DNA of 64,000 nucleotides, from the NCBI GenBank assembly GCA_977018835.1, contig OZ361257.1, positions 3,038,001 to 3,102,000 of the forward strand. The letters are read 5' to 3'. Source of the DNA: Minutocellus sp. GHC0000111 (lineage: Eukaryota). Each line of letters begins with the position of its first letter. The first letter of the stretch is position 1. The notes below the pieces were generated by a model. The model was not told the DNA's origin and made no database searches. It saw only the letters and a list, made by a program, of their open reading frames with translations. Below, piece after piece: positions 13,013 to 60,100 of this stretch. Both the position numbers and the translations under genes were made by a program.

Positions 13013-13336
13013 GAGCGAAAGAAGGTGCTGCATGCAAATAATTCACTTTGTAATAATGTATCTCTGACAAATGGAAAATTGAAATGGGACCAATCGGACC
13101 GATTATTATAAGAGGTACACAGATATCTACTCAGAGCAACAAAGGGTAATTTGGATATCTACACGTATTGTATGGTAGGAATTCCTAGCTAGATCCTAGA
13201 TTAACTCATAATTTGTACATTGTGTGATGCATATCGATATGCACGGGCAGAGGAGTTTCCGCGGTCATCAGAGTGGAAAAAAAGGGGTCGCCGTCGCGTC
13301 AGTTGCGTACTAGTACCAATTGGTACGCGTCTCGCG

Positions 13337-15925
13337 CACAGCCCCATCTCGTCTTGTTTCGCCGGTCGGATGAAGCGTTTTTCGGCAGAAGACGAACACG
13401 TCACGAAGAAACCCACCAAAACCCAATCTCGTTCGTCACCCATTTTTGACCGTCCAACACCATGGTGGTCCGTCGGCGTTGCGCCGGCGTATAACTATAT
13501 TTTCGTACCAAATACGCATTCATTATCATGTTTGGATATAGTTGAAGCTTACTGTATCCTCAGATTGGCCTCCGCTGCGCATCAACGCCACGAACCATCG
13601 GCCTGCTTTTCCTCCATCTGTCGGCCGTTCGTTTCTCTGGGGTGGTGCCATTGCTCCGTCTTTGTGCTCGTCGTGCTCCCGTTGTGATGCCCCAGACCCT
13701 CTGGTACTTTCCCACGTTGTTGTTGATGATAAACTGCCGGGATTGCGCCGCACCCCCCGTATGACCGACTCTCGCTGATCCCGACCGATCGCATCCCCAC
13801 TCGACCTCCCCCCCGGAATTCCGACAACAATTTTGCGCCCGAGGAGAGACAGATAGTATTGGGATAAGTTTATGCAACAATCAACCCGACAAAGGGACTT
13901 TTTGGCCTGGGAGATAAATGGGTGAGTTAAGAAGGACGTGATGTGTTTGTTTGGGTGTGCTATTTACTTTTTTGCTCAATCGCGATGCTGTTTGTAAAAG
14001 TTGGATTTTGTGCAATTCATTTGTTATTGTGTAGCAGTGGTGTAATTTCATTTTCTAATTTTATACATGCCCTGCTCCCATCTCTACATCCTCATCTCCA
14101 TCGGTGGCCATCATGATCATTTGTTGGCGCTTGTCATCAGTTTCTGCTTTTTAACAGCTTCGGTCCTTGTCCTTTTCCTTGCTCTTGCCACCCGAGAGTT
14201 TCGCTCCCGCCTCTCCTCGACCTTTGGATTGGATGCCCTCTCCTCAGCCTTGAACTGCGCCGTCTGTTGGGCCTCATGTCCCTTGACGCCCTGAGTCCGA
14301 CGATCTTCCTTAACGCCCTCTTGGTGGGGGCTCGCTCTACAAACGATTCGTCGAGCCAACAGAGATGCCGCCCCATCCATTCTTCACTAGCCAAATGTGT
14401 TGGTCCAAGATGTGATCTTCGAGTAAGTGCCACTTGGGCGTCATGCTAACACCGATTGCCCGTGCTTGCTTGAGGGCACTTGCAATCAATGCTTCAAGCT
14501 CTCTCACAGCCTTCTTTGCCTCATCATCCCATCCATTTCATGTGCCATTTCAGAAACCTGGAACATGTTGCGTCAAGAGTGTGGAGCAAGTTAGAGCAAG
14601 CTTTGCAGAGCTCTTTGATGTCGTCATCCGTCATGCCATCTTCCTCGCGATTGTGCTCTAGGAGAGTTCCTTTGGTGGAGGTGTCATGGTGGATGAACTC
14701 TATTGTCCTTGGTTTCTTCTTGTTGTTGTTGCCATCAGAAATGTTAACAGATAAAGCTCTCCAGCATTCTGCCAGCACTGCCCTTATTTTACCTGAGTCG
14801 GCCGCCTCAATGCCGGCCTTTTTCAGGAAATGGAAGTGAGGGGCATCGTCATCCTCGGCATCATCGACAGCTCCCATCTCTGGCTCGCCATCACCGTGCT
14901 TCTGACGATTCTTCTCAAAGTGCTGCTGCATGCATGCTTCATGTGTAGCGTCCTCTCTTGCAACATCAGCTTCGTCCTCATAACAGGGCACACAGTCCTC
15001 GTCTTCGTCGTCATCGTCCTCACTGATCTCGCCGGCCTCCGTCGTGGTCAGGGTGCCCACCGTCCCAACATCGTCGTCATTGTCCCACCCATCGTCCTGG
15101 CCATTGCATCCACCAGGGAACTTCTGGGCCTCGAGCAACATCTGCCTGTTGATTTCGTAGTCCATCGCCGCACATCCCACCGACACATGTGGTGCGACCG
15201 ACTTGAGGAATGCATCACATGCCTTCGTCAAATTGAGCCGCGGCGGCGGTGTTTCGAGGAGAAGTTGTTGTTGCTCGACCGTGACCATGTCGAAAGCCAC
15301 CATCCATCCATCATCATGGAGAGCGTCGGCTGCATGAGGATTGATAGAACCGAGGCGAACAAATATGCTCTTTTTGCATGGGGTTCGCTGAACGTCGTCG
15401 GCAAGGCAGTGTCTTGACACCATTTCATCCCATCCACTCTGGTTGTCTGTCCTCACAAAAAACACATCGCACGTAGTCTTCGTGTTTCTTCTTCTTCAAA
15501 CCCAAGATGCCCGCAGTGCACATGACGGCGCCGTACACATGATGGGACTGCATCCCAACACATTCATCAAGGAGTCGTTGTTGTTGCCGATGAAGTTGTA
15601 GTGATGAAGTTCCTTTCTGCGAAGACGGACGAGCAGTTCAGCCAGGGCGTCCTGCACCGCAGTTCTGTCTGCGGTGTTGACCGCGGGATTGCGGCCGTTA
15701 TTTTTTTTGCTCATGGAGAATTATGGATCGAGACCAACGGGAATATCACCAGGATGTCGGGAGTGCCTGGTTGGTCTCGTGCCGTAATTCTCCCACACCA
15801 GCGCGAGACATCGCCTTTGTTCTGCACGCAGTGGCGGCAATTTGAATTTTTGCTTCGCGCGCCGGCCGGCCACCGAAAGTGCGACCAAAAGTATGTGAGT
15901 CATCCGGCTGGCAGATGGTGCTGTG
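13337..15925 (-). mobile_element. Non-autonomous CAC...GTG DNA transposon (Chapaev/Transib/RAG1-like), internally deleted
   Basis: The left end reads CACAGCCCCATCT (13337) and the reverse complement of the right end reads CACAGCACCATCT (15925). CGCG flanks both sides (13333-13336, 15926-15929). A degenerate minus-strand transposase lies inside. Confidence 0.8.
14062..15714 (-). pseudogene. Frameshifted, internally deleted RAG1/Transib/Chapaev-like transposase
   Basis: Joined frames give ...TPKWHLLEDHILDQH...GWGG..WLDESFVERAHQ, matching the HxxxxH zinc ligands and catalytic-Glu region of RAG1/Transib/CMC-type transposases. The central DD core is not visible. Confidence 0.7.
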
Positions 15926-16060
15926 CGCGTCGCGACGAACATGTGGTCTGTGCTTCAACCGGATCGAAAGAAATCGTATCGTGTCAGGGAAACATGACAT
16001 AAATGAAGCAACCGGACGCATATCTTGCAACAATTAAACTCCGTCGAGGCAAGCAACACG

Positions 16061-16618
16061 ATGATCACAATCGTTAAAATAATATCAATCGCCACAACTC
16101 TCTCTGTGGTCTTCGGTACCGGTCCTCTGGAGGTCTCGGCGTTTGCACCGGCATCGGTACCCATGCGGGTGTCAGGTGCAACAAGATGCGGAACGCCACA
16201 TCGTCAGATCCTCATGATCAGATCCATGACGAGGAAGGATGATGGTCTGACCGAGGAAGAAAGACAGGTCAAAATGGACAAGGCCCTAAAAGCCATGACG
16301 GCATTCTCGAACAAATATATTGAGCAGACTGACACCAAGTACTGCACCGACATGTCGGTTCCGGCTGTCGTCATCAAAGGGCTTGCGGAGCACAAGGTCC
16401 AGCTTGGTGCTCCCCTGTGCCCCTGTCGGTTTTATGATGACAAGGAAAAGGAAGTAAAGGAGGGGTACTGGAATTGTCCCTGCGTTCCAATGCGAGAAAG
16501 GAAGGAGTGCCACTGTATGCTGTTCCTCACGGAGGACAATGCCTTTGCGGGAGATCAAACTAAAATCACAGTGGAGGAAGTGATCAAACTGAGTGGTGGA
16601 GCAGCTTCGAAAGAATAG
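16061..16618 (+). CDS. ftrC: Ferredoxin-thioredoxin reductase catalytic (beta) subunit, plastid-targeted
   Basis: CPC...CPC...CHC motifs (APLCPCR, WNCPCVPMRERKECHCMLF) and a signal peptide followed by VSAFAP. Confidence 0.93.
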   Translation: MITIVKIISIATTLSVVFGTGPLEVSAFAPASVPMRVSGATRCGTPHRQILMIRSMTRKDDGLTEEERQVKMDKALKAMTAFSNKYIEQTDTKYCTDMSVPAVVIKGLAEHKVQLGAPLCPCRFYDDKEKEVKEGYWNCPCVPMRERKECHCMLFLTEDNAFAGDQTKITVEEVIKLSGGAASKE

Positions 16619-16836
16619 GAGTAGTGAGTCGAAGGGTTTCAATTCGAGTGCTGGATATGATTCCACAAGTTTCATTGGAGAGCCATGAAATGTCATTGGG
16701 AGTTGCCGATTAGTTGCGTTGTTTATTTTGGCGCTTCGAGCTGAAGCATAAACAGGGAATAAGAACAAGCTGTAGAATTGAGACATCGTCTCTTTTACAG
16801 TTGTCTTTAAAATCGATTTAGATACAAAAAATATTT

Positions 16837-18041
16837 TTACAACTTCGCTGGGGCCTTGGCCTTGATGGCCGCATCGACAGCCTTGGAAACATCAGCTGGG
16901 CTGGCAGTGCCGTCGATATCAACGCTGATATCGGTGTAGCTTCCCTTGACGGCATCAACATTGGCATGGAACTGCTCGAGACGGACCTTGACCTTCTCTT
17001 CGGTATCATCACTGCGCTGCTCAAGACGTGCCAATACTTCCTCATCATCCGGAGGCGAGAAGGTCATGTGGTAAATCTTTCCAGTGACAGGATCGGTACG
17101 ACGACCAACGACACGCTCGACAAGAACATCGTCGGGGACATTGAGGAAAAGGAAGCAGTCAGCCGAAACTCCAGCAGCGGCAAGAGCATCGGCCTGGGCA
17201 GGAGTGCGGGGGAAACCATCGAGAAGCCATCCGCTCTTTTGGCAATCAGACTGGTCAACGCGATCCTTGACCTATTATTTCATATTCACAATAAGATCGT
17301 ACCAACATTTATGTTGTGAAAGGAAAAGGAATGGGGGAGTGTGAGAATGAAATTGCACGGCAAAGCGATCTGATATGGATCAGCCTTCAACAACTAGTTC
17401 AGCATCACCCATCAACCGCGTGCAAAGAAAGAATAATATGCTGCAAGATCTCTGTAGAAATTTCGACGTACCACTCCAATAATGACATCATCAGGAACAA
17501 GCTTTCCAGAATCCATGAATTCCTTGGCAAGCTTTCCAACTTCAGTCTGGTCAGCAACAGCAGCCCGAAGCATATCTCCGGTCGACAGATGAACAAGGCC
17601 ATACTTGTCCTTGATGATCTCGCACTGCGTGCCCTTGCCACTGGCGGGAGCACCGGCAATGATGATTTTGAGAGGATCGGCGACGGCCTTGCCAACACTG
17701 CTGCTGCTGTCGGCGACGGGAGCGGCAGCTCCAGCGGCGGCCCTCATCTGCTCGGTCTGCTCGGCGGTCGCGGGAACGTAGTCCTCCCCGTCCTGCACAA
17801 CCTCAAAGTTGCGAATGCGATCGTTCAGCTGCCTCTTGTGGCGGCGGGAGATCTTCTTGAGACGGTTGAGGCCCATCAAACCAACGAGATTGACCTCATC
17901 GAAATTCTCGTCGACGACGAGCTCGGTCTTCTCGGCCTCGGCCTGAAGAATTGTGTTAGATGTTGCCGTGCGAGAAGCAATCGGTGCGAAAGCGGAGGCT
18001 GTGGCCAGAAGGCCCGTCAAGACAGCAACGCGAAGGAACAT
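16837..18041 (-). CDS. adk: Plastid-targeted adenylate kinase with an extra N-terminal domain; exons 18041-17472 and 17271-16837
   Basis: ASAFAP presequence; GAPASGKGTQC, HLSTGDMLR, GWLLDGFPRT, GRRTDPVTG..YH and RSDD motifs; GT-AG intron 17471-17272. Confidence 0.92.
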
Positions 18042-18219
18042 CACCAAAAAAGTGAGTGAGCTGCATGGTTTCGAACGTCATTCGAGAGTCGTGTCTTGGC
18101 CTCATAACCCGATGGTTGCCTCCAGATTTTTCAGATTTTCGATATTGCAGCAGCCAGCATAGCGCAGGCAGGGGATATCAAAAACGGCATCACATCTTGA
18201 CTATCGCTGGCTGCTCCGT

Positions 18220-18957
18220 ATGCGCTGTTCTCTATTCACAACAACAGGAATTGCAATAGTGGTAGCTTGCATATTGTCATTCGAATGTAGTACTACTGCC
18301 ACCACACTCGAGGAAACAGCAGAGGCCGAAATTGCCAGCCCACCACCACCAGCCGCCAAATGCGAATCTGAAGAAGATTTGGACTTTGTTACCTGTGATT
18401 TGAAGCACTTATCCAAAGAAGCACTTCAATCCATTTGCACTCGAGTTGGACTGGACCTCGAGAAGCACATCTTTCCCATCTTAGACGCGGAAATTGGAGG
18501 CATCGACGACGATGCCTCATCTGAAGTTGAGAGAAGCATTGAGGAATATGTTTGGGCTGCTCACGAATGCTTGCTCATCGAAGACGAGGTAGATGAAATT
18601 GAGGACGAAGACCCAGAAGGGCTCGAGGCATTGGAAATGGCCATGCTCGAAGATGATCCAGATCTGTTGGCCGAAGTGATTAGTGATGTACTTGAATCAA
18701 ATCCTGCCCTTCTACAGGATTTGGAGGAAGAGCTGAAACGGGAAGATCCAGAGCACTATCAGGGTATGATTGAAGAATTGGCGGAGGGCGAATCGCTTAT
18801 CGACAGGCCGGAACTCGTCGCGGACTTAATAGCTCTCATGTTGGCCGAAAATCCAGATATGGCTCTCATCGATGAGATTGATGACCACATGATACATGAT
18901 GAAGAAAATTCAGATGATTCCGAAGAAGCGGCACGAATAGGGAAGGAAGAACTGTGA
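18220..18957 (+). CDS. Acidic, probably ER-resident protein of unknown function
   Basis: N-terminal signal peptide-like segment, very D/E-rich body and a C-terminal KEEL (KDEL-like retention signal). Confidence 0.7.
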   Translation: MRCSLFTTTGIAIVVACILSFECSTTATTLEETAEAEIASPPPPAAKCESEEDLDFVTCDLKHLSKEALQSICTRVGLDLEKHIFPILDAEIGGIDDDASSEVERSIEEYVWAAHECLLIEDEVDEIEDEDPEGLEALEMAMLEDDPDLLAEVISDVLESNPALLQDLEEELKREDPEHYQGMIEELAEGESLIDRPELVADLIALMLAENPDMALIDEIDDHMIHDEENSDDSEEAARIGKEEL

Positions 18958-19316
18958 CGCCACATACTTGCAAGATAATTGAATAAGAATGCGAATACCA
19001 GGTACAAGTGTACTTAAACTTTTGGAACAATGTGAGTATCACTAGTGCCTAAAGCTACGTAGTAGCAGACCTAGGCAATGCCGAAGGTTGGCGATGCGAT
19101 GCAAATACAAATGTTCGCGACATTCTCTGTTGACATACAATACATAACGAATATATATGTGCTAATGTTAGTTTGGTGATATTTCCCACCAGTGAGTGTG
19201 CTATGATGCAGATATCGGAAAAGTATAGAATCTGAATCATATCTACAAGTGTTTTTCTTTCAGACGCCAAAGTACAAATGATACATCCTTTGCTTTGGCC
19301 AATTGCCTAGAATGAA

Positions 19317-21481
19317 TCAGGCCGACGATTCTCCCGTGGGAATGGCCTCGCCTGCCGAGTTCTTCATCTTCTTCTTCTGATACTCTTGCGTCTTCTCCTT
19401 GTAATTGTCCATATCGATGGCGGCAAGCGACTTATAGTGATCTCTCCGATCATCGGCCAGAGCCTTCCACCGACTAGCAATGAGCTTGGCCAAAGTCTGG
19501 AAGCCAATCTTGCCGTGGGTCTTGCGGTGAGGCCTAGGCTTCTCCTTATTGTTGAGGCGGAGGGTCATGAGCTCGTCGTACGTGGAGGGAGAGAAATCCG
19601 AGTCGTCGAGGTCAACATCCTTGAGTGGGTCCTCCTCTTGCTTCTCTCCGTCCTTGTCGTCCTTGCCCTCGTCCTCCTTGTTGCTCTCGTCACCGTCCTT
19701 GTCACCCCCGTCTTCCTTCTCGGCTGCTTTCTTTTCATCTCTTTTCTTCATGGCCTTGAGGATCCTTTCTCTCTCGTCAATGAAGAAGAAGTTGTAAGCC
19801 GAAAGAGGACGACGAGGAGCATCGGCGGGTCTGGTGCGATTGTTCTTGGTACTTGCAGATCCCGTTTGGGATGCCGTTGGCACAGGAACCCCACTTGGGA
19901 CAGGATAAGTGTTGCTGTTGCTGCTGTCTCCAGCGTTCATCGGCTGCATCATGGCCGGTTGCATCACGGTGCCGTTCACCATGGGCAGAGTGGAGCGGCG
20001 CTCCTGAGCGGCGGCAAAGCTGGCAGCAGCACTGGCTGCGTTGGAAAGACGGCGTTCCGCTATCATGGCCTCGGCTAGGAGGGCAGCATTGGGAATCTGC
20101 TGGAGACCACCAGCGTTCTGGGCGAGCAGGTCCATGGAAACGCGACGGGGGAACCCAGACATCATTTGGCCCATTTGCATGGCGGGCAGCATATTCATGT
20201 TACCAAGGGCGGCCATCCCAGGCATCATCATGCCAGGTGCCATACCGAGAGCAGGCTGCATCATTGCATCGGCGTTGGCGTTGGCAGCCATTGCATTGCC
20301 GTCAGCTGCAGCAGCGCCACCCCCAGAGGCAACATGATCTTGCTGCTTCTTTCCCGACATGGAGAGGAAGGTTTCGGCAGCCTCGAGGTCTCTGGCGTCG
20401 GCCTGTTCACCTCCTTCTCCTTCGGTACCGCCGGCGTTACTGGCGCTGTTGGCAGCATTGGCGTTGTTGTTGCTGCCAGAGGATGACCCATCGGTAGGAT
20501 TGTCTCCGGTGGCAGTGGCAGTGGCAGTAACATTAGTTGCGGCAGCCTGGGCCTGGAGCAGATCTTCGTTGTTGCCCCCCTGTCCCATGGCCGCCTGCGA
20601 CGCTGCGAGGGCGGTGTGGGTTTCCAGCTCCGCCAGCCGAGCCTGCGCGGCCTGGACCTCGGCCCGGGCAGTTCGAATCTGGGCCAGGCGGAGCAGCGTC
20701 TGCTGGTCGGACTGTCCACCACCACCGCTGGCGGCATTCGAGTTGGCATTGGAAGCGTCGGGCGACCCCTCCGGAGCTGCCCCCGGCGCCCCCGGCATGG
20801 TGCCGAGGCTTAGGCTGGGACGGGCGGGTTAGGGCCAAATCCAAGACTGGCACGACGAGTTCCCATGGTGCCCAAGCCCAAACTCGCGCGTGTGCCCATG
20901 GTGCCCAAACCAAGACTCGCGCGCGTGCCCATGGTACCCAGTCCTAGGCTGCCGCGCGGCGTCAGCGTTCCGAGGCCCAGGCTCGCCCGCGGATCGTTGG
21001 GGTCCAGTCCGAGACTTGCTCTCGCCAGGGCCATGGTAGTCTTGTGCTGCTCGGACTGCAGGGCCATCGCCCTCTCGAAGAGGGAGTTGTCGCCCAGCAT
21101 CTGCTGCTGATGATTCATCGCCATCCCGTCGGCCGGGTTCATGAGGCCCATGCCTCCTCCTGGATTCAATAGGCCCATGTTCACGTTGCCCAAACCCATT
21201 CCCATCATCCCGCCGCCGGCGGCCGTGAGCGAGGCCCGGCGGATGACTCGCTCGGCCATCATGGCGGCGTTGACGGCCGCCGATGGGTCCATCGCGGCTG
21301 CTGTGGCGGCGGCGGCAGTGGCAGGAGGGGCGGTCGGGGTTGTGGAAGAAGCGGCAGCGGCCGTGTCCGCGGTAGGCCTAGTAGCGATAGCTGTCTGAGA
21401 GTCGCCGGAGGTTTCAGCAGACGCGCCCGCAGGTGCCACTGCCGGCTGCGGCTCAGCAGCCACGGCCTCGTTCGTCAACAT
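19317..21481 (-). CDS. HMG-box protein; apparent 1-bp frameshift near 20826 joins ORFs 21481-20810 and 20798-19317
   Basis: The C-terminal HMG box reads PRRPLSAYNFFFIDERERI...THGKIGFQTLAKLIASRWKAL. Adding one base gives ...GPNP-ARPSLSLGTMPG, which continues the RASLGLGTM repeat. Confidence 0.8.
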
Positions 21482-22058
21482 GGTGTCTTTATATGCCAGG
21501 TACGTAGTATGTATCAATCGGTATCTTTCTCAACAAAGGAGATTCGATGATTCGACTGTCTTTGGCTGCTGGGAAAGGTAAAACGGTAAATGACTCAGAG
21601 CGAGATAATAATTTATTTGTGCTCGGCTTTGCTTTCTCGAGATACGCGTCGATTTCGGACAACTTTCTTCACCAAGCTACGATGGGGAATTCACTGTTGA
21701 GTACAGAATACGTCCAATGGAATTGGGCAGGCGATGGCTACCAAATTTGGACCGATTGGGGGCCGAGAAAGATGGCAACAGGCCGTGCGTTTTGTGTCGG
21801 TCTCGTGCGGGGCGGGGCTGTTTCGTTAGATCAGCCCGCCAGTTCCCAGCATCTGTCACAGTCCGCGCGGTGGACTGCGAGTCGACTGGCGCTTTGGCGA
21901 AGGTCAGACGATTCGATTTGGGGGGAGTGGCGTGGCGCGAGCGAGACTGGCGAGAGACGCGACTGACGCATGAACGGCCACCACCAGCCAGCAAACCACG
22001 CCAAAACGATACAACAATAATACGCACAATCGAAAAGCCGCCGCCAAACAGGTAAAAA

Positions 22059-22388
22059 ATGAAGACCGCCGTCTGCGCCACCCTTGCCCTCGTCGCCGCC
22101 TCGGCTTCGGCCTTTGTCGTGCCCTCCGCCAGTGGACCTCAGTCCACCGCCCTCCGCGCCGAGGCCGAGAAGACCGAGCTCGTCGTCGACGAGAATTTCG
22201 ATGAGGTCAATCTCGTTGGCCTCAACCGTCTCAAGAAGATCTCCCGCCGCCACAAGAGGCAGCTGAACGATCGCATTCGCAACTTTGAGGTTGTGCAGGA
22301 CGGAGAGGACTACGTTCCCGCGACCACCGAGCAGATGAGGGCCGCCGCTGGTAGCTCGGCTGCCCCTGCTGCCGCCGATGAGGAGTAA
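22059..22388 (+). CDS. Small plastid-targeted protein of unknown function, nearly identical to the N-terminal domain of the adenylate kinase gene
   Basis: Presequence MKTAVCATLALVAASASAFV, then AEAEKTELVVDENFDEVNLVGLNRLKKISRRHKR..., shared with 17740-17942 (-). Confidence 0.8.
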   Translation: MKTAVCATLALVAASASAFVVPSASGPQSTALRAEAEKTELVVDENFDEVNLVGLNRLKKISRRHKRQLNDRIRNFEVVQDGEDYVPATTEQMRAAAGSSAAPAAADEE

Positions 22389-41100: not shown

Positions 41101-41280
41101 CGTAAATGACCTCGATGAAGGATGAAACTCGTTTCGGCCTACTCGTACAAACAAAAAATGACAGAATAGCACCAGATCGCGCGCCCGATGGATGTTTGAT
41201 CCCACCAGCTCGCAAGCAAGATGATGGAAATGGCGCAGCTCAATCAAATCAATATTCTCGTGCGAAAGCTACCTTGATCG

Positions 41281-41564
41281 TCATCGTTTTTTGTGCGTGA
41301 TTTTTCCCCCTCGATAGCTCAGCCTGTGTGTGCGGAATTTTCGAGCCGGACCTTCGATGTCCCCAACCTTGAATGTGTCTAGAGTGGGGACGTAAGCGAG
41401 GCAGGCCGGCTCGATCAAGTCTTTTTGCCATATTTCAGGGGGAAAAGTTGGTCCGGCAGGAAATTGCGACTTTTCCCGTACTTCGCCGTGTTGGAAACAC
41501 GGACGACGGAAAGACGAATGTCCAGTTTTTGGGTCGAGCGGCTCACCTAAAGCTGGACCAACTC
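41281..41564 (-). mobile_element. Solitary end of a GAG...CTC-terminated DNA element
   Basis: It ends ...TCACCTAAAGCTGGACCAACTC (41564), the same terminus as at 57116 and 60490. Its reverse complement resembles 59785-60030. Confidence 0.7.
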
Positions 41565-42450
41565 TGTAGCAGTAGTGTAATTTCATTTTCTAATTTTATA
41601 CATGCCCTGCTCCCATCTCTACATCCTCATCTCCATCGGTGGCCATCATGATCATTTGTTGGCGCTTGTCATCAGTTTCTGCTTTAACAGCTTCGGTCCT
41701 TGTCCTTTTCCTTGTTCTTGCCACACCCGAGAGTTTCGCTCCCGCCTCTCCTCGACCTTTGGATTGGATGCCCTCTCCTCAGCCTTGAACTGCGCCGTCT
41801 GTTGGGCCTCATATCCCTTGACGCCCTGAGTCCGACGATCTTCCTTAACGCCCTCTTGGTGGGCTCGCTCTACAACAAACGATTCGTCGAGCCAATAGAT
41901 GCCTGCCGCCCCATCCATTCTTCACTAGCCAAATGTGTTGGTCCAAGATGTGATCTTCGAGTAAGTGCCACTTGGGCGTTATGCTAATACCGATTGCCCG
42001 TGCTTGCTTGAGGGCACTTGCAATCAATGCTTCAAGCTCTCTCACAGCCTTCTTTGCCTCATCATCCCATTTCATGTGCCATTTCAGAAACCTGGAATAT
42101 ATTGCGTCAAGAGTGTGGAGCAAATTAGAGCAAGCTTTGCAGAGCTCTTTGATTTCGTCATCCGTCATGCCATCTTCCTCGCGATTGTGCTCTAGGAGAG
42201 TTCCTTTGGTGGAGGTGTTATGGTGGATGGATGAACTCTGTTGTCCTTGGTTTCTTCTTGTTGTTGCCATCAGAAATATTAATAGATGAAGCTCTCCAGC
42301 ATTCTGCCAGCACTGCCCTCATTTTACCTGAGTCGGCCGCCTCAATGCCGGCCTTTTTCAGGAAATGGAAGTGAGGGGCATCGTCATCCTCGGCATCATC
42401 GACAGCTCCCATCTCTGGCTCGCCATCACCGTGCTTCTGACGATTCTTCT
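41565..42450 (-). mobile_element. Second, truncated copy of the RAG1/Chapaev-like transposase 3' region
   Basis: Close nucleotide match to 14030-14914; encodes ITPKWHLLEDH...DESFV(V)ERAHQ. Confidence 0.85.
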
Positions 42451-42451
42451 A

Positions 42452-45400
42452 CGCATGTCAGCTGAGGACGATGGCGAGGACGGTGTCATGAACAAGCACC
42501 TTTCGGTTTCAGAGGATTTGTTGAGGGTGTACCAATAACCCCTAAAAAGGTCATTCTTGCACACCCATTTCTCATTTCCCACCACGTGTTTTGTTAGTCG
42601 ATCGATGTTCTCTTCGGGAGGAACGCAAACACTCCTCAACTCGTGGATGTCTACTGGACCTGCTCATTCAGTAGGTTGCCACCGACCAGTAGTATCCACT
42701 GAATTCGCAGGTCCAGTAGATTCTGGCAGGAGGAACACATACATATTTTTTGGTCCCCCGCACACCCTCTCTCACCGCAACCCGCAAATTTTGTGACGAT
42801 GACGACGACCAACCAGACCACGCCCAAAAAATACAAACGCAGCAGAACTTCGTTCTCAGGGAGCAAGAGAGGCAACACCAAGGCATCCAGGAAGGCGGCA
42901 AAGGCGGCAGCTGAGCCGAAAACACCATCGCCGAGCGCAAACACGTCGAAGAAGCGGCCACGGTCAAATTCGCCCGCCAAACCGTCACCGTCGTCGGCGA
43001 AGAAGAGGACGGCCCCTCCTCCTATCCCCATGGCCTTTCTCCTTGCAGCAGATGTCATTCGAAGGGCTGGTAAGGATCTGTGGTGGAGAGTAACCCCCGA
43101 TTCCTGCGGCAAAGATGACATTTGTGTTGGTTCTTGGCAGAAATGGGAAGACGTCCTCCCTGCTTTCATCGAGGCCGACTTGTTGCGTTCCAAGTCCGTC
43201 GGTGGAGGAAAGTATGAGCTACAGTACAACGAGGAAAAATGGAAGGACATGCAGCAACATCTCAAGGAGCATTGTAGTTTGAAGTTGTGCACTTGTCGAC
43301 GCATCGGCCGAGAGGGAAGACAAGACGCAGGGGGCGCTTTATGTTTGTGCTCACAGGTTGCGTAAAAAGAAGGAGGACAACCACCCGAAATTCTCTGGAC
43401 CGGAGGGACAGAAGGTGCACGAGAAAAGAAATCCCGATGAAGTTCTGTTCTCTGGGCGCTCGACTGTCTTAGCTACTAAGCTAGGTGAGAGGTTGTCAGC
43501 TCACAGAAAGGAGGCACAGTCAGCGCATTGCGAAGCAAGAGTAAAATCACTAGTCGACGAGGCCAAGAAACTGGGTTGGATGCCAGCAAGTCTCCTCAGC
43601 ATACTGAAGGGAACTGGTGACACTTCCGCCACTGAAGCAGCTGCAGCCTCCCCCAATGATGAAGGTTTAGGAGGAGCCGATACTTCCGTTGTCTGTGCCA
43701 CCTCCAGTGACATTGATGAACAGGTAAAGGTCGCTCTCGGCCTCGACTTTGTTGTTCGGATGGCCAACGATGACATGCTCCGTCCTCCTCGTCCCAATGC
43801 AACCGTCACCGAACCAACACCAATCAGAAAAGAAAAGCAGGCGAATGAAAGAATGCGGTTCAGCGCCGTGGCTCTCGCGGATTGGTGGGGACACGGCGAC
43901 CCAACTCGCACGCATGAAGACCGGCAACAAATTGCAACTGCCTGCCGCGTGTCTCGGCAAGTTGCGCACGATCACGGTTATGCCAAGTCAACCGGTGGTT
44001 CTCAGCTTTACAAGTGGAGAGACCAGCTCTACAAAAGCCTTACTGATGGCATCAGCAATCCCATCGGCAGAAAGGAGGTTCGTGGAAGGAAGGCATGCAC
44101 GGACATGATCGAGGAGAAGGAGCCAGGATGTCTCCCCGCGAGCTGCATCGGTGTGCTACTCGGATGAAGGGTGCGATGGCAACCTTTAAGGAGCTAGCTG
44201 ACTGTATGAGCGCAAAATCAGCTACTCCAGATGAAGATAGGCTGACAATTAGTCTCCATCGTCTTCAGCTTTTTCGCTGGTGGAAAAAGCAAGGCGGTAA
44301 GGAGAAGTCGTCGATCGAGAAGCCGAGGCTCACCCCCGAACATTGCAGGAAGCGACTTGATTGGATCGAAAAGTGGGAGGACATTACGACCGATCCCAAC
44401 ATTCCTGTAGCGTATCTTGATGAAAAGTGGTTTTACACTACTACTCGGCGACGAAAGATCAAGATGTTGCCACTTTCTGACGAAGAACTAAGTAGTCCGA
44501 ACCTCGCGTCTATCCATGCTTCCGAGGCAAGCCCGAAAATTCGATCCAGAAGATACCCTGTCAAAGTTATGTATCTTGGAGTTGTTGGCCGACCAATGAA
44601 GGATGAAACCAAAGACGTTGATTTCAATGGGCGCATCATGATCAAGAGAGTCGCCAGGGAGCAGAAGGTGGAAAAGCTTACGCGTAATCAGAATTTCTCT
44701 CCAGATGCTAAGGTCAACGATGCGCTAAAAAATGACAAAGATTGGCGCGACATTTACGACGAGAATGCTGACATGACCGCCGGCCATCTTTGCGACCACA
44801 TTGCCGAAATCTACGGCCTTTCTGAGTTTGTTACAGAGCGATTGGAACTTCAATACGAGGACTATAAATCCGACGGTCAGGCAAAAAGTCGCAAGCATGC
44901 CGCTGTTGGCTACAATCAAAAGATCTCGAGTCTCAAGCGACACACTCCTGATAGCAATGGAGAGAAGGTGAAGGTTGAGATCGACGACCTTGAGCTCGGG
45001 GTGCGGTATCAACGGGGCAATATGGTTACCAAGGACTGTAGCTGCGACTCCAAATGGATGTTGGAGACTATGAATGAGGTCGGGAAGGCGATTCGAGACG
45101 CACATCATTGGGTGAAGTGGGATCCACAAAATATTCAGGAGTCTGATGTTATATATCTTATGATGGACAATGCCGGCGGTCATGGGTCCAATGAAGCAGT
45201 TGAGAAGTACACCGAGGACCTCAAAAACAAACATAAGATTGAGATAATCCAGCAGGTTCCTCGGTCGCCCGAGACAAATGTTCTTGATCTCGGCATCTGG
45301 ATGTCTTTGCAGTCGGCCGTCGAAAAGGAGCATCGCGGTGGTCAGAAGAATGATGCGAATGCTCTTGACAAGACTGTGATGAAAGTATGGGCCAATGTCG

Positions 45401-46014
45401 CATCAAAAGAGGCCTTTCTCAATGTATTTGGAAAACTTCCAGTGATATGTAACAACATCAAGAGAAGTCGTGGCGGTAACAATCTTGTGGAGACCAGACG
45501 GGGAAAGGCTGGTCTCGCAAAAATTGCCGAGGAAGAAGCTGAAGAGGATGGTGAACCACTCTGGCCAATTGATGCTCCCGGCGAAGATGATGACATTGAG
45601 GACGACATAGATGAAAATGATGAAGACGATGGAGTCATTGATTTGCTATAACTTATCATAGCATGTCCATTTCTATTCATTACATTTTGATTTGGTGCTT
45701 CCAAAAATGTGTTTTTTCCCGGGGTGAGGAATGCAAATGTCGAAAAAAATCATCACATAATGTACATTTATTGGTTCTGGTGCACAATATCTCTCGACTA
45801 TATGTAGAAGTTGGTGACCATAACTTGGTTCTTGCCCCGACTTCCATCTTGGCCGTCATTTATTCCTCGGAGTTAGAAAAAGTGAGAGCTTGGATTTTTG
45901 GTCTGGTGTGGTCGTGTTTCTAATACGTCATCATCACGTCACTTTCAAATCCTCTGAACTCGAAAGGTACAGCCGGTGAGCGTGAAACGTGCTCATTAAC
46001 CTCATCTCAGCACG
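42452..46014 (+). mobile_element. Tc1/mariner-superfamily DD39D transposon with degenerate TIRs, flanked by TA
   Basis: TA at 42450-42451 and 46015-46016. The subterminal inverted motif AAATCCTCTGAAnnCGAAAGGT lies 46 bp from each end. Confidence 0.75.
42799..45651 (+). pseudogene. DD39D (plant-mariner-like) transposase split by frameshifts near 43320-43360 and 44130
   Basis: KPRLT, YLDEKWFY, KVMYL, MMDNAGGH and QVPRSPETNVLDLGIW; 39 residues lie between the second and third Asp. Confidence 0.88.
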
Positions 46015-50482: not shown

Positions 50483-51806
50483 GGGTTCAAATGATCATGC
50501 AGCAGCAACGGCTAAAAGTAGAAAGTAGAGAGAGGAATGGCAACGTACCAGTACGTGAGCTGGTGACTTCAACAACAGCATAATACCACGGCAACAACGA
50601 CTAATAACAACTAAGGCAACATACCTGTGGGTGGATGGTGCAGTAACGTCCTGTATTGGTGGAGCAGTTGCTTGGCTTAACTTGATACTCGGTGTTGTAT
50701 TGTGGCTGGCTGAGTAAGCTGCGTGACTGGACTCGCTTGCGTGTGCACGGATGAGCACTGTATTTTTTGAATATGAAATGAGACCACCACCACATTATTC
50801 TCATTCTTCCCGCAAAAGCAGGCACGTCCGATGACCACAATAAGCGCACCCATGCTGCTACGAGCCTAGCTAGCTACTACGTAGCTAGCTAGCGCCACTC
50901 GAATGCAGCGCTAGCTACGTAGGTGCAGCAGCCAAATCAAGGCAAAGTAGCAGCGGTCAGCCAATGCGGCCGAGCAGCCGCTAGCGTCGGAGCACCACAG
51001 GCCCAGGCAGTCCCCCGAATATCAGCCAACCACCACGGCAAAAGGATCGACGGTACGAGCAGGCCAGATAGATGCGACCATGGCATCCACAATCCACAAT
51101 CCATCACAATCGTCAGCGTTGAGGGACTTGGCCATTCGTTGGCATTCATTTCATGCCGCATTGGGATTGTGCCGCAACAAGCGCATTGTAGCAACACTAT
51201 TGCCTCCAACACCCAGCGCCAAAGCGATAGCTTTCGGCATGGTTGGCACCGGTGGTATGGTACGAGGCGAGGAGGCGAGAGGGTCGAGGGAGAGCGGTAT
51301 GAAGTATGAGGCGGTTTGCGGTCGGCCCGTCGACGGACGACGGCCAGACCTATTTTTTAAATCAAAATCGGCCCGCGCCGAACGAACCAAATTGCAGCAA
51401 TGGAGAGAAAGAGGATGCCCACCAACACCTCTGCCACCATTAGGGTTAGGGTAAAAGCTTTAGAACATGTCATAGCTAGGGTTAGAGGAAGAAGAGCCAT
51501 GTGATTAGGGTTACAAAGAGGGAAAGCAATGAGGAGAGAAGTCAGTTTCCATCACTCAACAGGCTGTTTCTCAGTCAATTTTGGTCAGACGAAGCTCCCG
51601 AATGAACCAAAAGAATGCCCAGAGCAAGAAGAAGAGGAAGGGGGACACAAAAAAGAGCTTGGCATTAGACTACCGTTCTAGATCTAGCTAGTCTATATCT
51701 AGCTAGAAACTTGCCTGTGGTTAGTTTTACGTGCACGTAGCGGCGCTACAGGCACTGCTACCGGTGCAAACTACAACTGCACACAATGGCCAATAAATTC
51801 TTCTCT

Positions 51807-52757
51807 CTACTTCTTCTCCCTGAGCTTGCTGGCAACCAAAACGAAGGTAGAGCCATTGGCCTTCTTCCGAGAGAGCGTTTTGAGGTGCTTGCCGACAATT
51901 TCAATGTCCCATCCGTACGGGGGCCTGTTGGCGGGAGTCTGCCGAGCGTAGACCGGGTCCTTGTCGTAGTCTCTGGGAACTCGGCTCCGGACCATGTTGC
52001 ACTTCATGCGGTAGACAGGATAGGATGCGCCGTTGTGCTTGGGGTTGGAACTCGCGATGGTGGCTGGCATGACGCTCGGAAAGGACTGCTTCTCATCGAG
52101 GAGCCAAAAGCGAGCGCCAATGCGGAGCTTGTACAGGGGAGCAATCGACTCACTGTTCTCCTCGATCTCCTCGTTCCTGTGGTTGCGGGCACCGGCGTTG
52201 CCGACATTGGCCATCATAGAGGCCTTCTTCTTCTCGACGAGCTTGAGAGTCTTCGAGCCAGGTACCAGCCAATCACTGGTGAGGAGACGATAGCGAGTGT
52301 GCCGTCCACTGGTGCCAACATCCCGCAAGAAGTCCTCGTGAGCATCCTCCATCGCTGCATTGAACTCGGCAATGCTGCTAGCCCTGGTGAAGCGCACGCA
52401 GGCTCGAATGACGACGTCGTTGTCATCGACGCGGGTAGACTTGTTGTTGGTAATGGCCTCGAGAGTACCCTTGGAGCTGTACTTGCCTCTGTTGCCAAGG
52501 GGGCGTTCATCGTCATTGGGGGCGACTGGTAGGTTGGATTCCAGGATGGCGTTGATCGAGTTGTCGGAAATCGTCTCAGGGACAACCTGCGATTCCTCCC
52601 CCACCTTGTGCCCCAATCCAACACCAATCCGCCAGGAGAGTTCATCAATCCCACGCCTGTGTGCCGCCCTTGGGGGCTGGTGAGCGTGCCACAGTACGGA
52701 GATGCGCTCGAATCTTTTCGCTTGCGTATGCACGGATGAGCCTTGAATTTTTTGCAC
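51807..52757 (-). CDS. Orphan ORF (316 aa; start uncertain), copy 1
   Basis: Long ORF with coding-like composition inside the repeat unit; no family recognised. Confidence 0.5.
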   Translation of the reverse strand: MQKIQGSSVHTQAKRFERISVLWHAHQPPRAAHRRGIDELSWRIGVGLGHKVGEESQVVPETISDNSINAILESNLPVAPNDDERPLGNRGKYSSKGTLEAITNNKSTRVDDNDVVIRACVRFTRASSIAEFNAAMEDAHEDFLRDVGTSGRHTRYRLLTSDWLVPGSKTLKLVEKKKASMMANVGNAGARNHRNEEIEENSESIAPLYKLRIGARFWLLDEKQSFPSVMPATIASSNPKHNGASYPVYRMKCNMVRSRVPRDYDKDPVYARQTPANRPPYGWDIEIVGKHLKTLSRKKANGSTFVLVASKLREKK

Positions 52758-53774
52758 ATGAATGAGACCACCGCCACACTATTCTCATTCTTCCCGCAAA
52801 AGCAGGCACATCCGATGGCCATAATAAGCGCACACATGACACTACGTAGCTAGCACTGGCCTAGCTGTAGCGAGTCTGGTACTCATAGCGCCACTCGAAT
52901 GCAGCGCTAGCTCTAGCTAGGTGCAGAGCCAATGCGGCCGAGCAGCCGCTAGCGTCGGAGCACCACAGGCCCAGGCAGTCCCCCGAATATCAGCCAACCA
53001 CCACGGCAAAAGGATCGACGGTACGAGCAGGCCAGATAGATGCGACCATGGCATCCACAATCCACAATCCATCACAATCGTCAGCGTTGAGGGACTTGGC
53101 CATTCGTTGGCATTCATTTCATGCCGCATTGGGATTGTGCCGCAACAAGCGCATTGTAGCAACACTATTGCCTCCAACACCCAGCGCCAAAGCGATAGCT
53201 TTCGGCATGGTTGGCACCGGTGGTATGGTACGAGGCGAGGAGGCGAGAGGGTCGAGGGAGAGCGGTATGAAGTATGAGGCGGTTTGCGGTCGGCCCGTCG
53301 ACGGACGACGGCCAGACCTATTTTTTAAATCAAAATCGGCCCGCGCCGAACGAACCAAATTGCAGCAATGGAGAGAAAGAGGATGCCCACCAACACCTCT
53401 GCCACCATTAGGGTTAGGGTAAAAGCTTTAGAACATGTCATAGCTAGGGTTAGAGGAAGAAGAGCCATGTGATTAGGGTTACAAAGAGGGAAAGCAATGA
53501 GGAGAGAAGTCAGTTTCCATCACTCAACAGGCTGTTTCTCAGTCAATTTTGGTCAGACGAAGCTCCCGAATGAACCAAAAGAATGCCCAGAGCAAGAAGA
53601 AGAGGAAGGGGGACACAAAAAAGAGCTTGGCATTAGACTACCGTTCTAGATCTAGCTAGTCTATATCTAGCTAGAAACTTGCCTGTGGTTAGTTTTACGT
53701 GCACGTAGCGGCGCTACAGGCACTGCTACCGGTGCAAACTACAACTGCACACAATGGCCAATAAATTCTTCTCT

Positions 53775-54725
53775 CTACTTCTTCTCCCTGAGCTTGCTGG
53801 CAACCAAAACGAAGGTAGAGCCATTGGCCTTCTTCCGAGAGAGCGTTTTGAGGTGCTTGCCGACAATTTCAATGTCCCATCCGTACGGGGGCCTGTTGGC
53901 GGGAGTCTGCCGAGCGTAGACCGGGTCCTTGTCGTAGTCTCTGGGAACTCGGCTCCGGACCATGTTGCACTTCATGCGGTAGACAGGATAGGATGCGCCG
54001 TTGTGCTTGGGGTTGGAACTCGCGATGGTGGCTGGCATGACGCTCGGAAAGGACTGCTTCTCATCGAGGAGCCAAAAGCGAGCGCCAATGCGGAGCTTGT
54101 ACAGGGGAGCAATCGACTCACTGTTCTCCTCGATCTCCTCGTTCCTGTGGTTGCGGGCACCGGCGTTGCCGACATTGGCCATCATAGAGGCCTTCTTCTT
54201 CTCGACGAGCTTGAGAGTCTTCGAGCCAGGTACCAGCCAATCACTGGTGAGGAGACGATAGCGAGTGTGCCGTCCACTGGTGCCAACATCCCGCAAGAAG
54301 TCCTCGTGAGCATCCTCCATCGCTGCATTGAACTCGGCAATGCTGCTAGCCCTGGTGAAGCGCACGCAGGCTCGAATGACGACGTCGTTGTCATCGACGC
54401 GGGTAGACTTGTTGTTGGTAATGGCCTCGAGAGTACCCTTGGAGCTGTACTTGCCTCTGTTGCCAAGGGGGCGTTCATCGTCATTGGGGGCGACTGGTAG
54501 GTTGGATTCCAGGATGGCGTTGATCGAGTCGTCGGAAATCGTCTCAGGGACAACCTGCGATTCCTCCCCCACCTTGTGCCCCAATCCAACACCAATCCGC
54601 CAGGAGAGTTCATCAATCCCACGCCTGTGTGCCGCCCTTGGGGGCTGGTGAGCGTGCCACAGTACGGAGATGCGCTCGAATCTTTTCGCTTGCGTATGCA
54701 CGGATGAGCCTTGTATTTTTTGCAC
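53775..54725 (-). CDS. Orphan ORF (316 aa; start uncertain), copy 2
   Basis: Identical to copy 1 except for one N/D change. Confidence 0.5.
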   Translation of the reverse strand: MQKIQGSSVHTQAKRFERISVLWHAHQPPRAAHRRGIDELSWRIGVGLGHKVGEESQVVPETISDDSINAILESNLPVAPNDDERPLGNRGKYSSKGTLEAITNNKSTRVDDNDVVIRACVRFTRASSIAEFNAAMEDAHEDFLRDVGTSGRHTRYRLLTSDWLVPGSKTLKLVEKKKASMMANVGNAGARNHRNEEIEENSESIAPLYKLRIGARFWLLDEKQSFPSVMPATIASSNPKHNGASYPVYRMKCNMVRSRVPRDYDKDPVYARQTPANRPPYGWDIEIVGKHLKTLSRKKANGSTFVLVASKLREKK

Positions 54726-55594
54726 ATGAATGAGACCACCGCCACACTATTCTCATTCTTCCCGCAAAAGCAGGCACATCCGATGGCCATAATAAGCGCA
54801 CACATGACACTACGTAGCTAGCACTGGCCTAGCTGTAGCGAGTCTGGTACTCATAGCGCCACTCGAATGCAGCGCTAGCTCTAGCTAGGTGCAGAGCCAA
54901 TGCGGCCGAGCAGCCGCTAGCGTCGGAGCACCACAGGCCCAGGCAGTCCCCCGAATATCAGCCAACCACCACGGCAAAAGGATCGACGGTACGAGCAGGC
55001 CAGATAGATGCGACCATGGCATCCACAATCCACAATCCATCACAATCGTCAGCGTTGAGGGACTTGGCCATTCGTTGGCATTCATTTCATGCCGCATTGG
55101 GATTGTGCCGCAACAAGCGCATTGTAGCAACACTATTGCCTCCAACACCCAGCGCCAAAGCGATAGCTTTCGGCATGGTTGGCACCGGTGGTATGGTACG
55201 AGGCGAGGAGGCGAGAGGGTCGATGGGAGCGGTCCGGCAAGTATGAGGCGGTTTGCGGTCGGCCCGTCGACGGACGACGGCCAGACCTATTTTTTAAATC
55301 AAAATCGGCCCGCGCCAAACGAACCAAATTGCAGCAATGGAGAGAAAGAGGACGCCCACCCTCTACCACCATTAGGGTTAGGGTAAAAGCTTTAGAACAT
55401 GTCATAGCTAGGGTTAGAGGAAGAAGAGCCATGTGATTAGCGTTACAAAGAGGGAAAGCAATGAGGAGAGAGGTCAGTTTCCATCACTCAACAGGCTGTT
55501 TCTCTCAGTCAGTTTTGGTCGGTCTGACGAAGCTCCCGAAAGAACCAAAAGAATGCCCAGAGCAAGAAGAAGAGGAAGGGGGGCACAAAAACTG

Positions 55595-57115: not shown

Positions 57116-60100
57116 GAGTTGGTCCGGCTTTAGGTGACCCCACATGTAGCCAGGCTGGTGCTGAAGTGACCCCTCACACGCCGGCCGGCCAAGCCAATTA
57201 TCTCGCACAGTGCAAGAAAAATGACACTCCTTAAAAAATCATGCTTTCTCAAAAATACCCAAATAGTTGATACAAGGGGGTGCTCAGTACTTCCTTCGTC
57301 CGTTGTCCGACCACTTGTGCTGCTTCAGAGACCTGCTGGAAACGCCATTTCTCAACGCATCACTTTTCGACCATGGCGTATTAGTAAAATCCCACGCCGC
57401 CGCAGGCAATCGTCCGAGGTGGGGGATACTGGTGCACCCCCGCACGCCTATGGAGTGTGTCTCCGGCGCCGATTTCTGGCCTCAAAAGATGCGGCCGATG
57501 CCTGTGAAAAAAATATATGCGATCAACGCCGACGACGGCGACCTCCACGAAAGTAGCCGACGGCTACCTTCACGTACTTGTACCCAGAGGATGCCATGAA
57601 GGAGGTGGACGAAGAAAGATCCATGGCTAATTCTGCACGCCATGATACAGCAGAGAGGAACGATCTGGGTCTCCGGTGACAAGGGGACCTGAAATGGACT
57701 CATTTCCACCTGGATGCATCAAAAGCGCACATTTGGAGGAAGTTTCTCGGTGGTTCCAATATTGGTTTTGGGGTGCCAGCAACAGATGTAGGGCCGGTAT
57801 GGACGGAACCAGGGTCTCAATAGCCGAGGTATGTAGTAATGAATTGATTTCTAACCATTGACTGTTCGCTGATCGAGCATGTGTTGTTTAGATCTCACGT
57901 GTTCACATGTAAAACCAAAAGTTCTCGATTCTCATCAACTTCTTCTTTTCTTTCAACTTTTCATGCTAGGAGCACATTTGGGCGTTCCCACGGAAGCTCG
58001 GGCTGATGGCAACCTGGTGCATATATGAGACGAAGGGCTTGGGCTTTCAAAGCAGCATAGGATGAGATACTCATCGAAAACATTGAATCCTAGGCTTGCG
58101 CCCTCGAAGATTTGTGTCAAAAAGCATCCATTTTTGAGACGATGCGGCCTTGTAGTAACCCACAAAACAAGTCCAAGGTCCTCTCGTAGGGGTATCAATC
58201 GATTATTCATACCAAGCGACTCCGTTTGACTGATCCCCACAACACAGCTCCTATTTTTTGTAATTTGCTAACAATGTTGGTGCTTTGGGTGCGGCCTTGA
58301 ACATTTCGGTGCAGTGCCCGGTCAGTTTATAGTAACGTATAAAACTGGCCTAGCAATCAATTCTACTGCAGCTACAACCAGTTGGAGGCCACTAGATATA
58401 CACTAGAATAAAACTATAAATGGGAGATGCTAAGCTAGGGATGAATTGTTACGCTACTAAGCTCCAAACTTTGTGGAGGTCGACGAGAATGATAAAAGTT
58501 ACCCTCCAAAAATGAAAACATGGCGTAGTTTGGCCGAACTATTGTCCCAATTGCCAGAAAAATGCTATTGAACCTCGGCGTACATGTACGACGTCCGTAC
58601 GGAGACCTTTCAACCGCCAAAATGGGCTATCTTCATGTACCTGTGGCGAATGTGATGTTGCGGTGGAGAAGTTGTGGAGAATCTGGAAGTTCTGGTTTTA
58701 CTTGTCATCATGTGAGAATGCAATGGGTTGCCAATACCAACAGGACAATCCACACATACAATTCCATTCTTTAGTACATACCTTGGCAGGATTGAATCAG
58801 AATCAGTACCCCAGGGTTCAGTTTCAACAACTATTGTACCTCATCTGATTTTGCCGCATGTTCCAACACCGAAAAATTTACCATAATTCCACAAAGCCCC
58901 AACAAAATGATCCACTTACTGATGCCGAACCCGCAGAAGGAGCACATCGATCGCTCTAGTAGATATATGGGAGCGAAATATCCATGGGCGCGAATCACAT
59001 CACGTCGGCTTGGTGTCCGCCACCAGCCAATTCGACCTCGAGGGCCGTTTTTGCGACGAAGTCAAATTCTTGATTTTTGAGACGGCATCGGCGTTTCGCG
59101 ACTGTTGCACATGCGAACTCGAAACCACTGCCTCACCGCCGCTCGGAACTACCATCGGAGCGATCATTCAAGTCGTCAAAGGTGGGAAATCTCTCATCAA
59201 CTCGATGTCACCGTTACTATTCTCCACGATTGTAGCTGTCGTGGAGGTCGAGGTCGACCGACAACGTGCGCCGGTAGTCGATTTTCACAAGTTTTATGAG
59301 CTGGACGCTCGGAACTAAGGCTCTCTAGCTAAGATGCACACACAGAGAAGAGATACTGAGGTGGGCGTGGTGGTTGCGTATCATCTTGGTGGTCATTTGA
59401 GCACATCATGTGTCGGGGTGGAGAAAAAATGGGAAGGAAATGGCACAGTCTGAGGTTAAAGTACACGCGCCAAGCTGAAATTGGAATCAGTACTGTTCTA
59501 CGGAGGTTTCCCGTAGGCGCGAAAATGCTGATTTTCCCCTCAATTTCTGGAATCATCACGTGTGCGAAACACCGCGAGAAAGCCCTAATCAAGAAGTATG
59601 TGGGGGCATCATCAAAGCTATGATTAGTTCTGTTACCTGTAATTCTGGCACCTTTGTTCTGTTTCAGGGGAAGCGCCCCGTAGGCTGGAGTTTTTTGTAC
59701 TGAAAAAAATCTGTTCATTTTTTCATAGTCCGCGCCGGCCGGCCAAAAGTACTTACCAGTAACCCTGGCTACATGTCGCCACTTGACCCCGAAAAGTAAC
59801 AATTCGTCTTTCCGTCGCCCGCGCTTCAACGCGGCGAAGCATGGGAAAAGTCGCAAATTACCGCCGGACCAACTTCTCCCCAGAATTATGGAGAAAAGAC
59901 TGCTGCGAGCAAGCCATCTGCGCGCGGGTCACACATCTACACTTGATGGAGATTTCTGACCAAGAAGGTCCGGCTCAAAAATTCGCAGTGCAAAGAGGGG
60001 AGAAAATCACGCACAAAAAACGACGACGACGCACGAAATTTTGCTCTCATTGGCGGCCGATGCGGGGGCGGATACGAACAAAAACCACAACAATCAACCA

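Follow-up and report, generated by a model that had tools for sequence, protein, structure and literature searches.

Transib elements duplicate 5 bp of target sequence on insertion. A duplication of this length, CCAGG, is shown for a TransibSU site (PMC4411706), and five Transib families (Transib5, Transib2_AG and TransibN1-N3_AG) carry 5′ and 3′ ends that resemble RSS12 and RSS23 (PMC1131882). The same source gives a D2-E spacing of 253 aa for RAG1 and a GC-rich target preference for Transib and RAG. In ProtoRAG the 27/31 TIRs are functionally asymmetric and the asymmetry is needed (PMC8289069), and the origin of the 12/23 asymmetry is debated between a RAG transposon, a Transib seed and a late RAG2-dependent gain (PMC8355894). 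The motifs C(2)C and H(3-4)H are common to the whole CMCT clade, together with Transib and RAG1 (PMC12730594). Within this clade, DUF1280 (PF06918) is the model of the Chapaev transposase (PMC3985635), and the Chapa finger is typical of Chapaev (PMC4411706; bioRxiv 10.64898/2026.01.24.700457). We found no literature report of short/long Chapaev ends or of a diatom Chapaev, which Repbase, Repbase Reports 2007/2008, Yuan and Wessler 2011 or supplements may contain.

The element described here lies in a window of 64,000 nucleotides, this being the whole stretch of DNA analysed. It is non-autonomous, belongs to a Chapaev-like clade that includes diatom members, and has one short and one long end.

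Element limits and target site

The features of the element are collected in Table 1. Copies were judged through contigs of public sequencing runs (X1, X2, X3, X5, X10 and X18) rather than collected singly.

Table 1. Coordinates of the element, its ends, its coding remnant and a second fragment of the same family in the window.
Feature	Positions	Strand	Evidence
Whole non-autonomous element, 2,589 bp, CAC...GTG termini	13337..15925	-	empty-site joint in 4/4 runs; depth falls to flank level beyond 15925
Target site duplication CGCG (4 bp), left copy	13333..13336	+	sequence, empty allele
Target site duplication CGCG (4 bp), right copy	15926..15929	+	sequence, empty allele, flank divergence of other copies
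Long end (downstream of transposase), block A, 13 bp	13337..13349	+	sequence
Long end, 11-bp spacer	13350..13360	+	sequence; family state inferred from depth over 13337-13367
Long end, block B, begins at end position 25	13361..13373	+	sequence comparison
Short end (upstream of transposase), block A	15913..15925	-	sequence
Short end, block B, begins at position 14, spacer 0	15900..15912	-	no indel at >=1% in X3, X2, X10
Transposase remnant: N-terminal part and C-terminal ~195 aa, interrupted by a stop and by several frameshifts	14064..15714	-	tblastn with P0003, P0008, P0009, P0011, P0012; translations
Deletion junction, P0009 residues ~150-723 gone	14659..14664	-	same junction in P0002-P0008 and second fragment
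H(4)H zinc motif TPKWHLLEDH (P0009 H801/H806)	14412..14441	-	translation, alignment
DESFVERA with E827 and E831; E831 the inferred catalytic Glu	14329..14352	-	translation, alignment
Second fragment of this deleted family, lacking ends, 886 bp	41565..42450	-	95.5% identical to 14030-14915

The CGCG flanks and the 4-bp duplication of the target site (TSD) proposed in the preliminary description are borne out by an empty allele. In four of four runs, contigs matched to the site join 13332 to 15926 and omit 2593 bases, that is 2589 plus 4, and the four bases fit on either side of the joint. The runs represent at most three samples and two studies and are not fully independent, since one may derive from the window's own source. 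Filled junctions are also present, at a depth of about 85 against 132-155 in the flanks, and the presence of both states fits a heterozygous or polymorphic insertion. Beyond 15925 the other copies continue into different flanks, which places CGCG outside the TIR and rules out both its inclusion in the TIR and a TSD of 2 bp. The length of the TSD was measured at this one site. Among the contigs listed as running out behind 15925, CGCG also starts 4 of 15, a hint of a GC-rich target preference.

The element is flanked on one side by what we take, from its motifs, to be an HMG-box-like gene, which ends at 13012, and on the other by a presumed ferredoxin-thioredoxin-reductase-like gene, also named from motifs, which begins near 16060. 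Two neighbouring ORFs carry SAFAP/ASAFAP motifs, presumably for plastid targeting, which points to a diatom. A 24-bp inverted repeat (88%; 15715-15738 and 15770-15793) is located just upstream of the transposase start codon.

Structure of the two ends

On re-reading, the end sequences, the 11-nt spacer and the flanks are exactly as first described. Between the two ends, block A is identical at 12 of 13 positions and block B at 11 of 13. Dinucleotide shuffling of positions 14-53 gave a block B match of at least 11/13 in 15 of 2000 trials, and wider ranges, positions 14-73 and 14-113, gave one in 70/2000 and 159/2000, so the similarity exceeds chance modestly. Counted in RSS style (7 + spacer + 9), the short end at positions 20-28 agrees with the long end at 31-39 in 7/9 bases, a 12/23 register that is partly built into the 11-bp offset; an A-rich nonamer or A-tract is absent at these positions of both ends. 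The likeness of the initial CACAG to the RSS heptamer, also pointed out earlier, is not special: relatives begin with CACGG, CACGT or CACTG, and since they differ at positions 4-5 the likeness reduces to a general CAC terminus.

A second subfamily, represented by the deepest X10 contig, has the same terminal ~76 bp at its short end but another sequence further inward (15830-15860), with a repeated GCGCGCCGGYCGG motif resembling the core of block B.

Family state of the offset

Single contigs within the element reach depths of 16,556-22,280, against 132-155 in the flanks (X3, X5), which suggests that the family numbers more than 100 copies, with the caution, given by the tool itself, that depth is no copy number. 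At the short end there is no indel and no substitution at >=1% among 92, 159 and 6 contigs (X3, X2 and X10, respectively), and depth remains high up to the terminus at 15925. Run X18 (organism C) has no contig at the short end, which is no proof of absence. Two single contigs leave the element at 15912 and 15913, and in neither does the 11-nt spacer continue. At the long end, the implied depth over 13337-13367, spacer included, is 327,990, 17,566, 105,685 and 83,999 in X1, X2, X3 and X5, and that of the adjoining bin is 265,725, 18,524, 84,915 and 54,299; the former exceeds the latter in three of the four runs and is about equal in the fourth. No indel falls at 13337-13367 among 12 of the 41 indel entries, and 24 of 277 loose ends were covered.

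The 0/11-bp offset is thus the family state, directly at the short end and indirectly, by depth, at the long end. Symmetric TIRs in other copies, which would have reduced the offset to a private indel, were not seen within the family in short-end contigs or long-end depth; the offset is a family trait. Because all copies share one founder, fixation means that the offset is not private, and not that selection acts on it.

Transposase remnant and family protein

The stretch of about 570 aa lost at the deletion junction held a DDBD-like region, D339, D438 and the C(2)C, LH and YHGG motifs. The window copy lacks two of the three catalytic acids, keeping the H(4)H motif and the Glu region only, and with both catalytic aspartates gone it cannot move itself. 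The zinc and catalytic region had been given as a single run, TPKWHLLEDH...DESFVERAHQ. Both motifs are present, but they lie in different frames, and the final HQ is reached only across a 2-bp frameshift; the unshifted frame reads DESFVERAPT.

The second fragment of the family (41565-42450) had gone unnoticed in the first reading of the window, and an in-frame piece of it used as query returned 13 proteins. Seven of these, P0002-P0008, share the deletion of the window copy, and P0009 (920 aa) contains the ~570 residues deleted there. P0009 lacks the N-terminus and may itself be dead. The full parent would measure about 4.3 kb and encode about 1,100 aa, near the 4.0-4.4 kb of relatives; an intact parent that carries both ends was not found.

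At thresholds of E 0.001 and 1e-10, a phmmer search yielded 609 and 211 representatives, respectively; the named relatives are from the diatoms Thalassiosira exigua and Cyclotella meneghiniana. In a motif alignment of 68 rows (P0009 and 67 relatives), GDHG (D339), GDL (D438), C(2)C, LH, YHGG, H(4)H and ExxxExxH are conserved. D339 is present in 58/60 rows, D438 in 66/66, C455 and C458 in 66/67, H527 in 67/67, H801 in 61/63, H806 in 65/65 and E831, assigned as catalytic by its conservation, in 61/63. The D2-E spacing of P0009 is 393 aa. The zinc-binding region contains, between LH and YHGG, a long antiparallel coiled-coil insertion (P0009 556-673), which is present across the clade.

Predicted fold and class assignment

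The AlphaFold model of P0009 (pLDDT 85) aligned to the RAG1 core over 475 residues (VIA; Z 22.1, rmsd 4.0; Foldseek E 7.8e-12), followed by HzTransib (Z 21.4), BbRAG1L (20.1) and the P element (10.7). The RAG1 and HzTransib matches are tied within one Z unit and stand well above the P element; the PDB rows compared included no Chapaev structure. Residues 225-878 of the model align to RAG1 459-1007, i.e. from the DDBD onward. The family transposase is accordingly predicted to have a catalytic core fold of RAG1/Transib type. Motifs and this predicted fold (Z ~22) uphold the initial view of a transposon of the RAG1/Transib/Chapaev clan, with nothing in them placing the transposase outside the RAG1, Transib and CMC families.

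Pfam gave nothing relevant for the seven window pieces of the family, P0009, P0011, P0012 or P0003, and phmmer of P0009 against the PDB gave no match. In the comparison with DUF1280, six of 40 proteins reached E <=0.05. Among Pfam models DUF1280 was the commonest match, in five of 40 aligned relatives, one of them above the curated cut-off (P0046, 28.5 bits against 25); P0009 itself has no such match, and its nearest relative, P0016, stays below the cut-off (E 0.002). No RAG1 family appeared among the Pfam matches of the aligned relatives.

With Chapaev the window element shares CAC...GTG termini and a TSD of 4 bp, within the 3-4 bp of that group, and the P0009 clade shares DDE, C(2)C, LH and H(4)H (PMC4079192). 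It differs in several respects. Chapaev is known from animals, whereas the named relatives of the P0009 clade are diatoms; the clade is without a Chapa finger or RING, as judged from sequence, with no Cys/His column conserved and with 35 of 36 long N-termini free of CxxC; and short/long ends go unmentioned in the passages compared.

The Transib families with RSS12/RSS23-like ends share with the window family the CAC terminus, bipartite ends, and a short 5′ end and a long 3′ end that differ by one turn, in the same polarity in all five; symmetric and asymmetric families occur in Transib as in the P0009 clade (PMC1131882). The predicted fold of P0009 is also like that of HzTransib, at 11% identity. 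On the other hand, the window family has a 4-bp TSD, no AAAAAAATC-like nonamer, a 13-bp block A and a 0/11 spacer, and the D2-E distance of P0009, which carries the long coiled-coil insertion, compares with 206-214 aa in Transib (PMC1131882). With RAG1/RAG2 and the 12/23 RSS the window family has in common the predicted core fold from the DDBD on and the 11-bp difference between the ends; no RAG2-like ORF was seen in it, and it lacks a heptamer/nonamer consensus beyond CAC.

The window element is very probably a deleted, Chapaev-like transposon of the CMCT clade. We file it provisionally as Chapaev-like within CMCT, the tree holding the new clade only. A placement among true Transib or RAG-like (RAGL) elements is very improbable: the best solved-structure matches are RAG1, HzTransib and BbRAG1L, and profile A1 weakly matches BbRAG1L (E 0.015, amid coiled-coil noise), but no Chapaev structure competed among the PDB rows, the TSD is 4 bp rather than the 5 bp of a TransibSU site (PMC4411706), the D2-E spacing exceeds those of Transib and RAG1 (PMC1131882), and the Pfam matches are to the Chapaev model and not to a RAG1 family.

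Distant relatives and their ends

A metagenome scan returned at least 20 loci, at about 22-56% identity to the query; it used the motif AYHGGDLxG, which the window's own family does not match. Both ends were readable in three of 20 loci, and the other 17, without one or both ends, were left out of the end comparison.

The first of the three, L018, has an ORF of 1,069 aa. In its 3′ end an A-like block of 13 bp and then 10 nt precede an exact 13-bp block B, located at position 24. On the 5′ side the contig probably starts 6 bases inside the TIR, and block B follows directly on the remnant of block A, at what would be position 14; as this end is clipped, the 0/10 offset is inferred from a match to block A at 5 of 7 positions. 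The block B match of L018 was reached in 0 of 2000 shuffles. Its polarity is that of the window element, with the short end upstream of the transposase, and the RSS-style count gives a 12/22 register with 8/9 matching, again partly built into the offset. The second, L014, has an intact ORF of 1,119 aa and symmetric ends of about 42 bp with offset 0; compared by eye with the 5′ end of its relative L016, it has a bipartite look with a variable stretch at 14-22. In the third, L009, the ends share 15-19 bp and there is no significant block B, the best offsets, 15 and 35, being equalled in 278/2000 and 198/2000 shuffles; its flanks match at 2/4 in the TSD comparison. L014, L009, L016 and L018 all start with CAC.

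A FastTree tree of 60 rows, whose deep nodes are weak and which has no outside reference, places the window family, L018, L014 and L009 in subclades of their own. The one-turn offset is thus present in two of four families (window and L018), with L014 symmetric and L009 without a significant second block; the short/long design recurs in the clade, yet it is not universal.

No second ORF of at least 200 aa was found in the near-complete loci L006, L013, L014 and L018, and no RAG2-like ORF in the window element, the family's own full parent lying outside this comparison. At its C-terminus the relative encoded by L006 (352-3741) has a zinc finger of CW type (Pfam PF07496, E 1e-14); this histone-reading module brings to mind the PHD finger of RAG2.

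Protein scans of viral contigs gave no relatives, and an end-pattern scan of metagenome contigs gave no matches. Two end-pattern matches elsewhere were rejected as chance: L001, in viral contigs, has an 8-nt gap and a coding-like, GC-rich context, and L002, the sole match in genome contigs, lies inside an apparent bacterial gene, which we take from its motif to be thymidylate kinase-like.

Possible role of the offset

We lean, by a small measure, towards the reading that the two ends, short and long, offer the transposase a second binding block at positions that differ by one helical turn. Copies such as that of the window would be moved in trans by a transposase of about 1,100 aa from the ~4.3-kb parent. 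To judge from the predicted fold, a DDE dimer would act by cut-and-paste, cleaving at the CAC termini (block A), and insertion would proceed with a 4-bp stagger, as the observed TSD indicates. Block B would then be a likely second binding site, which a shift of 10-11 bp would keep on the same helical face, as in the RSS, so that both ends could be bound. Its candidate reader is a conserved helical region of about 70 residues directly preceding the DDBD. The short-5′/long-3′ layout may have been kept by selection in some lineages, with no strict requirement across the clade. Against this proposal stand the symmetric ends of L014 with its intact ORF, the lack of a significant block B in L009, and the readability of three loci in 20.

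Less probable, in our judgement, is an origin of the offset as a frozen accident: the founder's TIR (~26-37 bp), once symmetric, would have taken an 11-bp indel that then spread with amplification, with only block A mattering. To go by its intact ORF and its matching TIRs, L014 seems to transpose with symmetric ends, and L009 shares 15-19 bp only; short indels are many in the family (41 entries), and block B carries 2 mismatches in 13. An accident does not readily account, however, for the same one-turn offset, 13-bp A/13-bp B layout and polarity in L018, from a distant subclade, nor for ends that match in B and not beyond it, nor for the start of B at position 23-25 of the long end in the window family, in L018 and, by eye, in the L014/L016 pair.

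A strict rule of pairing one short with one long end, homologous to 12/23 and imposed without RAG2 by a tilting NBD-like dimer before the DDBD, appears doubtful. The RSS-style registers, 12/23 (7/9) in the window and 12/22 (8/9) in L018, would agree with it but are partly built in, and a helical region of fitting size does lie in the expected place before the DDBD. A model of this region with the DDBD (P0017, pLDDT 92) has RAG1 chains that include the NBD as top Foldseek rows, with 106-129 columns and non-significant E values of 0.27-2.0, against 47-49 columns and E 6-9 for chains without it, and VIA places residues 4-123 of the model colinear with RAG1 395-508, at an rmsd of ~10. The NBD, however, adds nothing to the Z score (6.8-8.1 with it, at rmsd 8.5-11.5, and 7.6-7.8 without). 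A homodimer prediction for P0009 148-226 (score 0.00, with an uncertain fold of the monomer itself) speaks neither for nor against it. The rule is further opposed by the missing A-tract nonamer, by the single long ORF of L006, L013, L014 and L018, by the existence of the symmetric L014, and by the finding that RAG1 alone, without RAG2, shows no 12/23 preference (PMC8355894). Its wider form, in which a RAG2-less, single-gene diatom transposase would pair short and long ends through an NBD-like domain and the one-turn asymmetry would predate the Transib/Chapaev split and have been lost in symmetric lineages, we likewise hold to be unlikely.

Substitution pattern and other repeats in the window

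Copies of the family differ mainly by TpA<->TpG/CpA changes on both strands (13337-15925 and 41565-42450), which make up 25 of the 37 substitutions listed, out of 50 inside or near the family's sequence, and 13 of the 18 between the two window copies. At 53 of 74 aligned positions in nine copies, a Tyr of the outgroup P0011 is replaced by His or Cys, so the direction is from TA to CA/TG, the reverse of RIP. In a control, the tandem repeat at 50733-55591 (period ~1,985 bp, ~2.5 copies, 91-97% identical), 8 of 47 changes are of this type. We found no report of a TA to CA/TG pattern in the literature on diatoms.

The second family fragment adjoins a transposase with a broken frame (42703-45648), presumably a Tc1/mariner-like transposase of IS630 type, as its motif suggests; this ORF has no Pfam match, and no TIR pair was found around it. 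The window further contains a 500-bp fold-back (70%; 60850-61346), a 51-bp inverted pair (57893-58717) and a 240-bp dispersed repeat (72%; 41278-41519 with 59802-60029), all possibly MITEs or ends of other elements. A 217-bp inverted duplicate (91%; 17727-17942 and 22158-22356) covers part of a gene that we assume to be adenylate-kinase-like.

Significance

If the offset is accidental, the window holds an ordinary dead transposon of a protist clade. The family offers defined ends together with a recent, polymorphic insertion, and two relatives with intact ORFs, L014 (symmetric) and L018 (asymmetric), lend themselves as a natural pair to a swap comparison. One-turn short/long ends in a clade that has diatom members but neither RAG2 nor the Chapa finger would move this design much deeper, or show its reinvention by the fold.
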